DNA from: Escherichia phage vB_EcoM_G37-3
Sequence record: MK327941.1
DNA length: 64,000 nucleotides
Reading direction: 5' to 3' (one strand)
The notes under the pieces are model-generated. The model was not told the origin of the DNA and made no database searches. It worked only from the letters and a program-made list of their open reading frames with translations. The position numbers were made by a program, and so were the translations under genes. Positions 18,009 to 33,242 of this stretch are shown in pieces. Within the stretch, counting starts at the first letter, position 1. Each line of letters starts with the position of its first letter.

Positions 18009-18033
18009 GGCGGGGATTATCCCCGCCTTTTTA
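18009..18033. terminator. Bidirectional rho-independent terminator
   Basis: GGCGGGGATTATCCCCGCC flanked by AAACGAAA and TTTTTA. Confidence 0.65.
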
Positions 18034-18543
18034 TTTGATTAAATCATCACATTGTTTGCGTAGTTTATAGCGATACTGTTTTGATTGTAGCAATTGAAGT
18101 TTTTCATAATCCCCTTCCTCATATGCAGCCGAAAGATCATCTTGATATGCTGCTTCCGTCCCGATTACACATACTCCAAATTTTCTACGACGGTCGGCAT
18201 CTTCCATTGCTTTGCGATTCATTTCTTCAATTGAATTTTCATGACCATAATAATATTCGTAAATGCGTTTCTTCTCTGCTTCTTTATCTGCCTTAATCTT
18301 TGCGATCTGTTCTGCTGATTCCGGTTGACGACCTAAACGCTGTAATGAGGCGTCTTTCTTTTCAAGGTAGTCAATCACGCAATCTTCAACGCTATTAAAT
18401 GGAAAACGTGACTCTTTCTGCCATCGTTCACATGACCGTACAAACTCGTGTGTATTCTTAGATGCAAGTGCCAGATCATGCACAGCGCACCCATTAAGCA
18501 TAGCCACTAAAGCCGCAAGACCAATCAGTTTAATCATTTTCAT
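18031..18543 (-). CDS. Putative lipoprotein
   Basis: N-terminal signal peptide with lipobox LNGC (MKMIKLIGLAALVAMLNGC). Confidence 0.55.
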   Translation of the reverse strand: MKMIKLIGLAALVAMLNGCAVHDLALASKNTHEFVRSCERWQKESRFPFNSVEDCVIDYLEKKDASLQRLGRQPESAEQIAKIKADKEAEKKRIYEYYYGHENSIEEMNRKAMEDADRRRKFGVCVIGTEAAYQDDLSAAYEEGDYEKLQLLQSKQYRYKLRKQCDDLIK

Positions 18544-19364
18544 TTAGTCACCTCACCGAAAATTGTAAATTGTCTACGATTCTCATCGCCGAAAGATTCT
18601 ACTACGTCGTTTACCTTGACGCAAGTCCCGCGCGGTAAAATTACTTCACATTCGCAAGGGTTCCATGCAATTGACCCAACAACAAAACCTTTATGATCTT
18701 TTACGTCAATTACCCATGATACATTACAAGAATGTTGCATCTTTCCGGTCATTGATTCATATCGATTCTCACAATAAAGGCTAGTGCTGTTTGATAGCCA
18801 TCCTCCAAAGATGATTGGTGTCATGCTGGTAGATACAAAGTTTTTAAAGGTAAACTCCTTATCTTCAATGATACGCTCTATTGTCTGAATGTCAAGATGT
18901 TGACCGCGATAAAGAGTACCGTTTAACTTTTCGGTTTTATCCATGACGCAATCCATCAAATCGACAATCTCTGATATCTCATCGGTCATGTCTTCTTCCC
19001 CTAAGAGAGCACCATTTACCCATTCGTATTGTTCAGACACATAATCACAGATTGCATTATATTCTGCTGGGGTTATGTTGTTATGTTTGTAATGTTTGAA
19101 TACATTATCTCCAAAGTCTTCGGAGTGTACTTCATACATCACATTAATGATTTTCTTGACAAATCCATAATCTTGTGTCTCACGCTCAAGGAAGCGGATA
19201 ACCTTCACATAATCATCAAAGTTAATCTGATCGCTAATCATCTCAGTGATCATGTAACCATTAATCCCCTCAATGTCATATGTTTCAATATAATTGTCCA
19301 TACGTTCCATCATTGATTCGCGTGATTCTTCCGAAAGACGAAAATCCTGTAATTTCTTGAACAT
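18540..19364 (-). CDS. ADP-ribosyltransferase (Mod/Alt-like)
   Basis: R-S-E triad context: TLYRGQ, FVSTS, CECEVILP; own early-type promoter upstream. Confidence 0.65.
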   Translation of the reverse strand: MFKKLQDFRLSEESRESMMERMDNYIETYDIEGINGYMITEMISDQINFDDYVKVIRFLERETQDYGFVKKIINVMYEVHSEDFGDNVFKHYKHNNITPAEYNAICDYVSEQYEWVNGALLGEEDMTDEISEIVDLMDCVMDKTEKLNGTLYRGQHLDIQTIERIIEDKEFTFKNFVSTSMTPIIFGGWLSNSTSLYCENRYESMTGKMQHSCNVSWVIDVKDHKGFVVGSIAWNPCECEVILPRGTCVKVNDVVESFGDENRRQFTIFGEVTK

Positions 19365-19385
19365 TTTAAACCTCCCATATAACAG

Positions 19386-19418
19386 AAAACGGGGCTAGTA
19401 TAAAACTAGTCCCCGTTT
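19386..19418 (-). terminator. Hairpin terminator after alt, overlapping the downstream early promoter
   Basis: CGGGGCTAGTATAAAACTAGTCCCCG inverted repeat flanked by A/T runs. Confidence 0.45.
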
Positions 19419-19425
19419 GAGTCAA
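19397..19425 (-). promoter_or_regulatory. Early sigma70-type promoter with stem-loop (PeSL-like)
   Basis: Minus strand TTGACT-N17-TATACT; hairpin overlaps spacer; RBS GGGAGG follows. Confidence 0.55.
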
Positions 19426-19442
19426 CCATTATTTCTTAAAAA

Positions 19443-21494
19443 TTACATTTTAAATTTATCTGGCATTGCGTCTACAGATACCAGATCAGCGATAAGCTGA
19501 CGTAGAGTTGCCTTATCTGCTTTCTTACGTTCGGTTTTAGCTTCGCTAATGAAGCTGGAGAAAGACAGGTCAGAAGCAGGTTTAACAACACCTTCACGGA
19601 TGAATGCATCGCCGTCCGCGATCATCTCGCCAGATTCTTGTAATGCTGCCAGTTCATTTTTGTTCATAATATGTGCCTCAATGTAATAAGTTTCTTGTGA
19701 ATCCGTCGATGCCGTAGCACGAGTTACCGTATCAAAGGATAACACAACACCGCGAGGAAGTAAAATCTCGCATTCTTTGTAAGCAAATGCTTTGTTACCT
19801 ACTGGCAAGACAGGGATGTTTTCCGCGCCAGCAATGGAGAAAGCAACATTAGCGCCACCTTCACCGCGAGAGCCAGCCATAGAATCAACACCAGCAACGG
19901 CACTAGCCACGTTTGCATTCCAGCCGCCAAAAATGTTAGGTGCAAGGGAAGTGCTCACATAGTTTTTAAAGTAAAACGCTTTTTGCTTACGTGCAGTTTC
20001 CCACATTTGCGACCGGAAGTCCATACCACGATACAGAATAGTACCAGGATCAAGTTTAACGCCATAGTTAGAGAAGGCATTATCCAGTGCATCGCACATC
20101 TTGACCAATTCTTCTGGATCTGCGATTCCCTCAAACTCTTCCAGCTTACGGTCGGTTAGGAAGTTGTTCATATTGATGTATGCTGCATCGGCATATTCGC
20201 TCAACACAAAACCTTCCGCGCCTGGTAGATCAAGATCAATATCTGCCATCATTTCACCCATGTTGCTAGCAATTGCTTCAAACATACCGGAAGCAACATT
20301 ACGTAGGGCATCGGTTTTAATCTGGGTGATATGACTACGCAGCATTTCAGCTTTTACATCTGCTGGCATAGACTGGTCTACTCGATCCATTGCCAGGGCG
20401 GTGATCTTGTTTTCGAATACTTCCTCGCTCATGATTTCTTTTAAGCGTTTGATTGATGCTGCGATAACTTCCGCAGACAATGGATCATATTGATCCTGAA
20501 CTTTTACCAGTTCGCTTACTGCGTATTTTGCATCGGCTTCGCTTTCAAAAATAGTACGCATGAAACCATAGCGAGTGATAATATCACTTGTCCAGTCATT
20601 CAGAGAACGGGCGGTTGAACGTTCTAAGGCTTGACGATCAATCAGAGTATTAAACTGTTTCTTAGGTTCGGCTTCGGTGATATCTTCTTCCGGTTTAAGA
20701 TTAATTTTTTCTGGATGATTCACATAGTCGCTGTTATAGGTCGCTTGAGTTTTCAGCATTTCTTCTTTAGTCAAACGAGATTTAGCCGCTACGCGTTGTT
20801 CCGCTTCCGCGTTTCGTTCTTCTTCTGACACCAGACTAGCCGCATACGCCTCATCTTTAGTCAGAGATTCACCAGTAGCCTTAGATACCCAGCGATCACC
20901 TAAATCACTTTCTACTTTAGTGAACAAGGAATCATCAAGTTTAATCCCTTTAATCTTATCAATCGCCATACCGCGACGCTTGACAACAACTAAAGCGATC
21001 TTTTTGCTGGTCATTACTTCCTGCTGGAATACTTCAAACTTCGGTGTACGACGCACCAAACGCTCTATAACGCGCTTAACCAGTTCGGTCTTACCTTTCA
21101 TGCGGGATACGTTAAAACGGAACATAACAGCGTCTAATTGCGCTTTACGGGCTGTTTCCATAACCACATCAAAAGCACTTGCCATAACTGCAATCGGGTT
21201 ATCGCCTAGACCATTTTTAAGCTGTACAATACGACCGCTTTTGTTCATTTCGCACAGTACAACATGCGCTGTCTTGTCACCCATACGAATGATTTTAGGT
21301 GTTTTGTTGGTGAAGTTACAAAGACGGACAATCACATCTTTATCGCGTGTCTGTACTGCAAAAAGCTGTTTAGGATTCTGCTTAGGCTTTAAGCACTGTA
21401 CCGGAGCAATACTACCAAAGTTTTCTTCCTCTTCCGTCAACAGCCATTTCTCGAAAGATTCAATCATTAGGTCGTCGATTTCTAAGTTAAACAT
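19443..21494 (-). CDS. alt: Alt ADP-ribosyltransferase (packaged)
   Basis: 683 aa (T4 Alt 682 aa); C-terminal ILYRGMDF, YVSTS, ECEILLPRG. Confidence 0.8.
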   Translation of the reverse strand: MFNLEIDDLMIESFEKWLLTEEEENFGSIAPVQCLKPKQNPKQLFAVQTRDKDVIVRLCNFTNKTPKIIRMGDKTAHVVLCEMNKSGRIVQLKNGLGDNPIAVMASAFDVVMETARKAQLDAVMFRFNVSRMKGKTELVKRVIERLVRRTPKFEVFQQEVMTSKKIALVVVKRRGMAIDKIKGIKLDDSLFTKVESDLGDRWVSKATGESLTKDEAYAASLVSEEERNAEAEQRVAAKSRLTKEEMLKTQATYNSDYVNHPEKINLKPEEDITEAEPKKQFNTLIDRQALERSTARSLNDWTSDIITRYGFMRTIFESEADAKYAVSELVKVQDQYDPLSAEVIAASIKRLKEIMSEEVFENKITALAMDRVDQSMPADVKAEMLRSHITQIKTDALRNVASGMFEAIASNMGEMMADIDLDLPGAEGFVLSEYADAAYINMNNFLTDRKLEEFEGIADPEELVKMCDALDNAFSNYGVKLDPGTILYRGMDFRSQMWETARKQKAFYFKNYVSTSLAPNIFGGWNANVASAVAGVDSMAGSRGEGGANVAFSIAGAENIPVLPVGNKAFAYKECEILLPRGVVLSFDTVTRATASTDSQETYYIEAHIMNKNELAALQESGEMIADGDAFIREGVVKPASDLSFSSFISEAKTERKKADKATLRQLIADLVSVDAMPDKFKM

Positions 21495-29601: not shown

Positions 29602-30075
29602 TTACTCCTTATTTTCGCGCTCGTACTTTTCGAAATAAAATTCTACTGGCTGGTCATGAATTGACAGCAAGCCAAAGCGTTTAGCCGCTCGCAATCCCAT
29701 ATTGCGCTGAATGTACTTCTGGAAGTTCTCGCGTATACACTTACGCCAGTATTCTAAGCCCATACAGCTTTTATAAAGATTGCATTGCACACACGCCGGA
29801 TTCATGTTATCAAGTATATCATGTTCCGGTTTATGCATTCCTACAACCTTATACTTCCACGATCCATCATCATTACGGGCAATTCGTCCATTTTCATCAT
29901 AGACTACCTTTGAGCGTCGCAATACTGGTTTGATGTGGTCTGCGTGCCAGCGATCCCCTAGTTCCTCGCCACAATAGGCACAACGTCCACCATATTTCAT
30001 TTTCAGGATCTGGCGTTGCTCTTTCTTTGACAATTTTTTAGGTTTAGGGGCTTTCGCCCCTTCATTATCACACAT
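29602..30075 (-). CDS. HNH endonuclease
   Basis: CAYCGE...HADHIKP...CVQCN motif set. Confidence 0.65.
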   Translation of the reverse strand: MCDNEGAKAPKPKKLSKKEQRQILKMKYGGRCAYCGEELGDRWHADHIKPVLRRSKVVYDENGRIARNDDGSWKYKVVGMHKPEHDILDNMNPACVQCNLYKSCMGLEYWRKCIRENFQKYIQRNMGLRAAKRFGLLSIHDQPVEFYFEKYERENKE

Positions 30076-31570
30076 CGAATACCTCTTTTACTGTATTTGC
30101 AGTGGTCTTGTCGTAGCGAATACGTTTGATGATCGGGAGAAATAAAGAGAACTCCGGTTCATCTTCTTTACGTGATTTGCTGCGGATATACCCGTTGCAT
30201 GTCATCTCAATGACTTTTCCAATCAGGTTATGACGGTCAGCCCATAACATTTCTCGGTCGAGTTCATTTCGACGATCGAACGGAATTACACGTTCAATAC
30301 CATCATCACCTTTTTCGGTTGTAGTGTCGGTTAATCCCGATCCGGTGTTAGTCATCATTCGTCCGCACGCACTACGGACAGTAAAACCGCCTACCTTATT
30401 GGGGTCTTTACTATGCGGATATACATCAACAATTTCCGCGTCGAAGTCAATCACTTCTTTAAATTTAACCTGATCTTTACTACGGCGATCTTCAAATACA
30501 CCATGTAAATTTTTAAGGATAATACCTTCTAAGCCCATGTTTACATAGCGATGATATACTTCGCGAGCTTCATCTATATTGTTAACTACAGTGTTTTCGA
30601 TTATCTGAACACGAGGATCGTTAAGTTCTTCAACAATCTGTTTTAGTTCTTCGAATCGATCTTTATATTGCTTCGTTGCTTTCTCGTTTCCGTAATACAC
30701 ATCACGGTCGATAACATCCCAGACAGTATAAACAATACATTGGGCTTCTTCTTTTGGAATAGTTCCTTTAAGTGATTTGTTGAGGATACCATTTCCGGTC
30801 TGACGGTCTGCAACAACGGATTCTTTTACTGCTTCCGCTACTGGCGTTAATGGCATTTCCTCTTCTTCAAATATCCATGACAGAGTACCATCATAAACGC
30901 TTTCAACGAAGTTCTGCGCTGGTGTTTGCGAAAGGGTAGGCATATATACCAATTCGCCATCTAGAACAATTCCACGGCCTCGTAGACGCTCTAAAACCGC
31001 AAACAAATCATCAAGTCCCTGATAGGTATTACCTGAACGGGTATAGATTGCTAATGTTTCCCCGTCAATATCAGCCATACCACGAGCACCATCGCTTTTA
31101 AGTTGTGCATACGCCGGATACTTGATATTAGCAATAGCCTTATCAGAATATGACGATGCAAGGTGACACGGTTGCTGGGGGATCAGTTTCTTCCATACCT
31201 TGTTTGCAGTGGTAGCGGAACAACCACATTCCAGATCACGATTCAGGACCATCATTGCAACTTTAGCATCATCTTCTGACAAGCAAGTCAGAGTATCGGT
31301 AACTAGCTGTAATGCTGCGTTACCAGTTACTTGACGCGTGGCAAGTTTATTTTTAAAGACCTGTAATGCACCGGATAAAGACAATACAGACGAATAACGC
31401 GATGGTTTATCGTATTTCTTTACGCCAAACGTAACCTGTTTGCAATATGCCAGATAAAAGCATTCTTTCAGTGTTTCATTGCTTGCAGATTCTTTCAGGA
31501 TCTTTTCTTTCAGCGATGTTTTGTCTGTTGCTGCAAGCTGGTTAATGATATTAAGAATTGACATTTTCAC
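30068..31570 (-). CDS. 30: DNA ligase gp30
   Basis: 500 aa; KADGAR lysine-adenylation motif; extended similarity to T4 ligase. Confidence 0.9.
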   Translation of the reverse strand: MKMSILNIINQLAATDKTSLKEKILKESASNETLKECFYLAYCKQVTFGVKKYDKPSRYSSVLSLSGALQVFKNKLATRQVTGNAALQLVTDTLTCLSEDDAKVAMMVLNRDLECGCSATTANKVWKKLIPQQPCHLASSYSDKAIANIKYPAYAQLKSDGARGMADIDGETLAIYTRSGNTYQGLDDLFAVLERLRGRGIVLDGELVYMPTLSQTPAQNFVESVYDGTLSWIFEEEEMPLTPVAEAVKESVVADRQTGNGILNKSLKGTIPKEEAQCIVYTVWDVIDRDVYYGNEKATKQYKDRFEELKQIVEELNDPRVQIIENTVVNNIDEAREVYHRYVNMGLEGIILKNLHGVFEDRRSKDQVKFKEVIDFDAEIVDVYPHSKDPNKVGGFTVRSACGRMMTNTGSGLTDTTTEKGDDGIERVIPFDRRNELDREMLWADRHNLIGKVIEMTCNGYIRSKSRKEDEPEFSLFLPIIKRIRYDKTTANTVKEVFDV

Positions 31571-32030
31571 CTCGTTTTGTTAAACGTTCACGAATATCAT
31601 TGAGGATACTACAAAATTCCGATTCAGTCAATATAGTCTTTAACGGATCAGTTCCACCTATGCTATGACGTAATTTCTTATTTCCTGTAGCGAGTAATGC
31701 TTTACAAAATTCTGGGTTATTCCGTGCCATCGTAACAAATGCCAGATGTACCAGTCTGTAATAATGCTCACTCATTCGATGAATCGGGCGACCCTGAAAA
31801 TATAACATGTGATTCTCAATCTTTTCAGTTCTTCCGGTTCTTTTTGCTTTGCCACCGTGCATCAAAAAGATTTCTCTTTGTCTCTGAGGGTTCTTAAATC
31901 TTAGCCCCTGTAAAAATCCTTCTGTGCTGTTAATATCGCAACCAAATAGACGGAATGGTCTTTTATTGAAATTACTCAATTCACCAGATGGATAAGGTCC
32001 ACCCGCATAGATATCAATTTCAGAAGTCAT
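31551..32030 (-). CDS. NADAR-domain protein (YbiA-like)
   Basis: ELSNF...PF...NSTEGFLQGLRF matches the NADAR signature (E. coli YbiA: DFSNF...PI...PTSEHYFQAQKF). Confidence 0.55.
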   Translation of the reverse strand: MTSEIDIYAGGPYPSGELSNFNKRPFRLFGCDINSTEGFLQGLRFKNPQRQREIFLMHGGKAKRTGRTEKIENHMLYFQGRPIHRMSEHYYRLVHLAFVTMARNNPEFCKALLATGNKKLRHSIGGTDPLKTILTESEFCSILNDIRERLTKRGENVNS

Positions 32031-32184
32031 TGAAACTAATCTCGCTAATCAGAGAGAACGGATCATAATCGTCATTAGGAATATCGATAGTAATCGAATG
32101 AGGATTTACCCATACACCAAACTGGTCTTCTTCGGTGAATACTTCGGTATGGATTTCGTGGATGTTTACATTCATAGTTTTCAT
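32024..32184 (-). CDS. Small hypothetical protein (53 aa)
   Basis: ATG with AAGGAA RBS. Confidence 0.35.
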
Positions 32185-32228: not shown

Positions 32229-32255
32229 AAAATATAGGCGGGATTATTACCCGCC
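32229..32255 (-). terminator. Rho-independent terminator after gene 31
   Basis: GGCGGGTAATAATCCCGCC hairpin plus T-rich tail on minus strand. Confidence 0.55.
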
Positions 32256-32631: not shown

Positions 32632-33242
32632 TTATTTCGCGACCTTTGGATTTCGCCGCAGACCGGAATGTATTTGCGCTATACAACAATAAGAAACATT
32701 AAACATATCAGCTATAATTTGCTTCTTAACTTTTCCTTTAAGCCGCATTATTTCTTCGACTTGCGCATTTGTCAGTTTTGCCCGTGAGTGGTTTTCACCG
32801 ACATTGTTATTGAGTCCAGTTCTAAATGAATGTCTCATATTTTCTAGTAAGGTTACTATTTCTAGATTCCACACATAATTGCAGGTTTTACACCATTGAT
32901 GTGATTAACCTCAAGTCCGGTAACGTCTCCTAGAAATGCATTTGCTACAAGTCGATGTATCTTTTCGGCTTTAACTGAGATTTTACCATTGTCTTTTTGT
33001 TTTGACAATGTTGAATAATAATATCCATATCGGTCTAAAATTGGTTTTATTATTTTACCAACACGTTTTTGTTTTACGAGCTTAATATTACCGGGAGAAA
33101 CTTCTCTATAAAATTCGATACTTCGGTCAATAGATCTCAATCTACCATAATTAGAGATTTCATACCACGGATAACCTACAGCTTGTCTCCATTCTTCCGG
33201 CGCTGGTAATATGATATTATCATCTTTTGTTTCCATTGTCAA
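32632..33242 (-). pseudogene. HNH homing endonuclease (NUMOD4 + HNH_3), frameshifted
   Basis: N-terminal ORF has YEISNYGRLRS and HRLVANAF...VNHINGVK, then stops; next frame continues NLEIVTLLENMRHSFRTGL; single frame change near 32870. Confidence 0.6.

Follow-up and report, generated by a model that had tools for sequence, protein, structure and literature searches.

We analyzed a 64,000-nucleotide stretch of Escherichia phage vB_EcoM_G37-3 (MK327941.1; the window hereafter) around gene 30.3, a 159-aa open reading frame (ORF) on the minus strand at 31551..32030, stop codon included, which we assign as an adfN ortholog encoding a predicted phage-type NADAR ADP-ribosylglycohydrolase. An earlier note, made from the sequence alone, had placed the ORF at exactly these coordinates, giving no strand, and had read it as a NADAR-domain protein encoded beside DNA ligase. 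The start codon is ATG, as annotated in relatives, and the gene is embedded between overlapping neighbors on the same strand. The ATP-dependent DNA ligase gene 30 (30068..31564, minus) overlaps the 30.3 stop by 14 nt, which bears out the reported adjacency, and upstream lies gp31.-1 (32020..32184, minus), a 54-aa ORF of unknown function (PHROG 15277) that overlaps the 30.3 start by 11 nt. This small ORF is annotated in all Krischvirus relatives fetched, with the same 11-nt overlap in every copy examined.

The 3.5 kb around the gene share 97-99% identity with 59 Krischvirus genomes, including RB49, JSE, Phi1, PHB13, and KFS-EC, and the first 25 kb of the window show the same relationship. According to the record taxonomy lines, Krischvirus belongs to Straboviridae but stands outside the subfamily Tevenvirinae. 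Gene 30.3 is full-length (480 nt), with no indel or frameshift, in 59/59 of these genomes, at 95.4-99.8% nucleotide identity. Nei-Gojobori comparison with seven relatives gave synonymous divergence (dS) of up to 0.23 against nonsynonymous divergence (dN) of no more than 0.008, for dN/dS ratios of 0.00-0.08. Gene 30.3 is a maintained, functional protein gene under strong purifying selection and more than a chance ORF. Most Krischvirus records label it "hypothetical protein".

The product has the same sequence as the deposited RB49 gp30.3 (100% identity; AJ550428, also on deposit as AY343333) and matches Pfam PF08010 (Phage_30_3, "Bacteriophage protein GP30.3") across nearly the whole profile (positions 2-138 of 138; 132.5 bits versus a cutoff of 36, E=1.2e-38), as well as PHROG 652 ("unknown function") at 2.5e-45. 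With tblastn, homologs were found in 1509 phage records, most of which are T4-like phages of Escherichia, Klebsiella, Shigella, Aeromonas, Acinetobacter, and Vibrio; outside Krischvirus, identity was always below 60%. Among 1.84 billion representative proteins, a profile search returned 1665 clusters at E<=1e-3. Beyond phage-sized single-domain proteins, the gp30.3-type domain is also present in P0014, P0022, P0031, P0058, P0073, P0086, P0087, P0110, and P0114. Some of these longer proteins carry the domain in tandem, with one copy lacking the catalytic glutamate (P0031 and P0058 lack the lysine as well). In others it is joined to BspA-type leucine-rich repeats, Lgt, or an FtsW-like membrane domain, fusions that are uninformative about substrate.

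Direct sequence searches linked this family only faintly to NADARs. The Pfam NADAR match of the protein was sub-threshold (15.5 bits versus a cutoff of 35.1) and cannot alone carry a NADAR claim, and only 12 of 66 family members reached that Pfam model at E<=0.01. Searching PDB sequences with hidden Markov models of the family yielded marginal YbiA matches only (E=0.12 and 0.021), NCBIfam offered just a faint NADAR anti-phage match, and PADLOC returned no match. Since the sequence-only links were this weak, profile comparison and structure were needed. Aligned with hhalign, the 66-sequence family profile matched E. coli YbiA with a probability of 93.6% (E=2.1e-7, 128 columns, residues 4-151). 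The AlphaFold2 (AF2) model is of high confidence (predicted local distance difference test, pLDDT, 94.2; predicted template modeling score, pTM, 0.89) and displays the helical core with small beta-hairpins at the flanks that is typical of the NADAR/YbiA fold. In a Foldseek search against PDB its only credible matches were YbiA (2b3w, E=2.5e-6) and a Phytophthora NADAR-ADP-ribose complex (8bau, E=1e-3). Fold search on the predicted model and profile comparison together confirmed a NADAR fold, so the NADAR label given earlier holds at these two levels, although not by direct Pfam match. A DltA ligase (7vhv_D) that came up as the top phmmer match against PDB sequences (E=3.8e-4), with a weak echo in NCBIfam, was rejected as spurious, as the fold search gives only NADARs.

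All the motifs quoted in the earlier note are present, namely ELSNF at residues 17-21, PF at residues 25-26, and NSTEGFLQGLRF at residues 34-45. They coincide with the best-conserved positions in the family: over 163 family representatives, on which all residue counts are based, L18, S19, N20, F26, E37, and Q41 are kept in 154-159. In NADARs, the catalytic positions are the glutamate and lysine of an E-x3-Q-x2-K segment together with an acidic residue of the last strand, the latter being histidine in phage NADARs (PMC11543638, PMC11125620, PMC12945103). According to our alignments, E37 (codon GAA, 31920..31922, minus) is the catalytic glutamate and corresponds to T4 E36, YbiA E48, PnNADAR E43, and EcC7 E88; the position is Glu in 158/163 representatives. 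H122 (codon CAT, 31665..31667, minus) directly follows strand 119-121 of the AF2 model, at the position that is Glu in YbiA-type and Asp in DarG1-type proteins, and is the phage-NADAR histidine found in 158/163. An arginine, R44 (codon AGA, 31899..31901, minus), takes the place of the phosphate-coordinating lysine (T4 K43, YbiA K55, PnNADAR K50, EcC7 K95); 155/163 representatives carry Lys here and 6/163 carry Arg. Of these six, one each is the window, the Krischvirus cluster, a metagenomic relative of 71% identity, and an independent protein, and the other two are repeat copies whose glutamate is missing as well. R44, E37, and H122 are present in 8/8 Krischvirus copies examined (this window and seven relatives), and the remaining conserved residues are all intact. 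A C-terminal alpha-helix (residues 136-155; 31566..31625, minus) is modeled with high confidence, and the alignment extends to the final residue of T4 AdfN, leaving this helix intact; it is truncated in the inactive RB69 AdfN and is needed for full activity (PMC11825919).

The function of the T4 ortholog has been established experimentally. T4 gene 30.3 was mapped as the DarTG1-resistance determinant with T2×RB69 and T4×RB69 chimeras and renamed adfN, for anti-DarT factor NADAR (Johannesman et al., Nat Commun 2025; PMC11825919). T4 without 30.3 is DarTG1-sensitive and ectopic AdfN expression rescues RB69, while purified AdfN strips ADP-ribose from DarT1-modified DNA, which defined AdfN as a guanine-ADP-ribose DNA glycohydrolase both necessary and sufficient for DarTG1 resistance (PMC11825919). 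E36A, K43A, and C-terminal truncation impair the protein, and E36A, impaired in vivo, also behaves as catalytically inactive in dot blots; AdfN shows no DarT1 binding and no effect on DarTG2, which involves thymine, and gives no rescue of uninfected cells (PMC11825919). Guanine specificity in vitro was shown independently (PMC11125620, PMC12945103; in vitro work in Toxins 2024), and in a T4 transposon screen 30.3 insertions were lost only on DarTG1 hosts (HIDEN-SEQ 2025).

We consider it probable, with good confidence, that the window ORF is the Krischvirus ortholog of T4 gp30.3/AdfN and acts as a DarTG1 counter-defense, in line with the counter-defense role against DarTG-type systems proposed earlier. 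Enzymatic activity, DarTG1 necessity and sufficiency, and the absence of a DarTG2 effect were established for the T4 ortholog only; by orthology, the RB49-type protein, with arginine at the lysine position, would do the same as T4 AdfN during Krischvirus infection. Namely, the host DarT1 toxin would ADP-ribosylate guanine N2 in the replicating phage DNA, and the enzyme would bind the ADP-ribose with E37 and H122 around the distal ribose and R44 on the diphosphate. Hydrolysis of the N-glycosidic bond would restore unmodified guanine and allow replication to proceed on DarTG1-carrying E. coli, making the enzyme an orphan, antitoxin-like counter-defense without a toxin partner.

Several points weigh against this assignment, beginning with the poor direct matches to NADAR models described above and the low identity to T4 AdfN (38% over the full length). 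T4 AdfN protects non-T-even phages weakly, suggesting a T-even helper factor (PMC11825919), and Krischvirus lies outside Tevenvirinae, where T4 AdfN works fully, and lacks the T4 neighbors 30.1 and 30.2. The phages assayed in the AdfN study (T2, T4, T6, RB69, and Bas35-47) were all Tevenvirinae (PMC11825919), and our literature search for Krischvirus or RB49 tests against DarTG found none. The arginine at the position of T4 K43 belongs here too, as the K95R variant of the EcC7 NADAR keeps hydrolysis in vitro yet leaves cells unprotected against DarT1 (PMC11543638).

The last point opens the best-surviving alternative, in which an enzyme of the same fold and chemistry has been weakened or retargeted by the lysine-to-arginine change, so that it is a poor DarT1 antagonist and acts mainly on another substrate, such as RNA carrying ADP-ribosylated guanine (G-ADPr), the products of another DNA- or RNA-directed ADP-ribosyltransferase (ART) defense, or soluble ADP-ribose derivatives. 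In its favor, R44 replaces an otherwise prevalent lysine and is found in all eight Krischvirus copies examined, which are under strong purifying selection, and K95R sets a precedent for catalysis without in vivo rescue. Moreover, G-ADPr in RNA is likewise removed by every NADAR family (PMC12945103), and the Aravind group predicted soluble ADP-ribose-derivative substrates for phage NADARs. However, arginine keeps the charge, K95R keeps catalysis, and the other conserved residues are intact, while an alternative substrate has been shown for no gp30.3-type protein. T4 AdfN likewise fails to rescue uninfected cells and yet protects the phage (PMC11825919, PMC11125620), so that failure in the toxicity assay is not failure in infection and the assay predicts infection outcome poorly. 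We therefore regard a weakened or retargeted enzyme as unlikely. The substitution is conservative and lowers our certainty about potency rather than about family membership. More speculatively, and in our view quite unlikely, it might mark a lineage-specific retuning of AdfN toward another ADP-ribosylated nucleic-acid substrate or a DarT variant, or else independence from the T-even helper, an idea that arises because the clade lies outside Tevenvirinae and lacks 30.1, 30.2, and AdfA.

Another candidate source of substrate lies within the phage itself, and the earlier note had suggested that the enzyme could process substrates made by the phage's own ARTs. Two ART genes are found on the same strand about 10 kb downstream (18540..21494): Alt (683 aa; 19443..21494, minus) and a 274-aa ART (18540..19364, minus), both annotated in JSE and matching PF03496 at E=2.4e-9 and 4.3e-16. 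They stand in tandem within 18031..21494 (minus), followed by a 170-aa ORF that has no Pfam match and overlaps the stop of the 274-aa ART by 4 nt. An enzyme that reverses or edits ADP-ribosylation by these two proteins would accord with T4, where alt is only four genes from 30.3, and with a published contextual analysis that describes NADARs of T4-like phages as early genes alongside ARTs. In Krischvirus, however, those 10 kb, with more than 20 small ORFs, lie between the ARTs and 30.3, and both transferases belong to the PF03496 type. T4 Alt is a protein ART that modifies RNA polymerase, and the JSE annotation is in line with this, which counts against such a role. Every NADAR assayed cleaves base-linked ADP-ribose (on G, and some on C), with no protein ADP-ribose activity reported (PMC11543638, PMC11125620, PMC12945103), and T4 30.3 is dispensable unless DarTG1 is present, when it becomes essential (HIDEN-SEQ 2025). 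Processing of the phage's own ART products is thus unsupported and very improbable. Least credible of all, and next to negligible, is a YbiA-like housekeeping N-glycosidase acting on riboflavin-pathway intermediates: although E. coli YbiA is the best structural and profile match, its family is defined by a last-strand Glu (PMC11125620) that is histidine here and in nearly all family members, the T4-type cluster is nearest to DarG1-type NADARs in the published tree (PMC11825919), and the phage has no riboflavin context.

Beyond the gene itself, a terminator-like GC hairpin with a T-run (32237..32255, minus) directly follows gene 31 and separates it from the 31.-1/30.3/30 block; GEC-3S and Makalu_002 carry a terminator annotation for the same element. 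The 50-nt gap before the block contains no obvious promoter of its own. A scan for sigma-70-like promoters found 12 sites versus 11.7 expected in shuffled sequence, and given this lack of enrichment we make no claim on expression timing. An HNH endonuclease (29602..30075, minus; PHROG 2118, E=2.7e-54), annotated in JSE too, lies directly downstream of the ligase, with an 8-nt overlap at the ligase 3' end. In addition, an HNH homing-endonuclease-like insertion between genes 31 and 31.1 (32632..33242, minus) consists of two overlapping ORFs of 80 aa and 126 aa, both PHROG 59, and resembles a mobile endonuclease that has been frameshifted or has degenerated. PHB13, KFS-EC, and ECD7 share this insertion, which is absent from JSE, kvi, and others (82% query coverage).

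The earlier observation holds but is already known: the orphan counter-defense role of the family has been published and independently reproduced, and the family is curated in Pfam. What remains of non-trivial interest is the clade-specific lysine-to-arginine substitution and the fact that the Krischvirus function is predicted by orthology. This natural arginine variant offers a ready-made probe of how the phosphate-binding residue affects potency in vivo. In practice, the gene could be re-annotated in Krischvirus records as an adfN-type NADAR, and RB49-like phages, which are phage-therapy candidates, are predicted to be DarTG1-resistant. The tightly packed neighbor gp31.-1, with no detectable family or function, is a cheap candidate for the supposed phage helper of T4 AdfN.

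Among known systems, T4 AdfN is the closest. Both are orthologous PF08010 genes of T4-like myoviruses, located between gene 31 and DNA ligase, and both encode a minimal NADAR core of about 150-160 aa with the catalytic Glu, the phage-type His, and the C-terminal helix. The Krischvirus protein differs by R44 in place of K43 and by nine additional, low-confidence C-terminal residues. The neighborhoods differ as well: in T4, 30.1 and 30.2 separate ligase from 30.3, and on the other side 30.4-30.9 plus rIII lie before gene 31, whereas in Krischvirus 30.3 adjoins ligase directly, 30.1 and 30.2 being absent, and only gp31.-1 lies upstream. In tblastn searches of the complete RB49 genome with T4 proteins, 30.1, 30.2, 30.4, alt.1, and AdfA (61.2) had no match, and AdfN had one homolog. 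RB49 also encodes, outside the window (OZ035808.1, ~127.0-127.5 kb), a homolog of Tk.4/AdfM, the anti-DarTG2 macrodomain (44% identity, E=1e-38). From these sequence matches, the Krischvirus clade appears to carry one putative enzymatic eraser per DarT type.

DarG1-type antitoxins, which are DarT1-associated and of the BC4488 family, are more distant, with E. coli C7 and the G. lovleyi NADAR (PDB 8BAT) as examples, at 11% identity in structural alignment. Unlike these, the 159-aa phage core has no N-terminal extension and carries His for the catalytic Asp, has gp31.-1 and ligase rather than a DarT toxin as neighbors, and gave no match in PADLOC. Identity to E. coli YbiA (PDB 2B3W), the housekeeping N-glycosidase, and to the Phytophthora nicotianae NADAR with ADP-ribose (PDB 8BAU) is 18-22%; neither is phage-borne, and their last-strand Glu is replaced by His, which places the phage protein outside the YbiA family. 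Finally, AdfN-Bas32 and AdfN-Bas60, from T5-like and Vequintavirinae phages, are likewise phage-borne orphan NADARs that neutralize DarTG1, but they fall into different NADAR clades, stem from independent acquisitions, work without phage infection, and are not of the gp30.3 type (PMC11825919).
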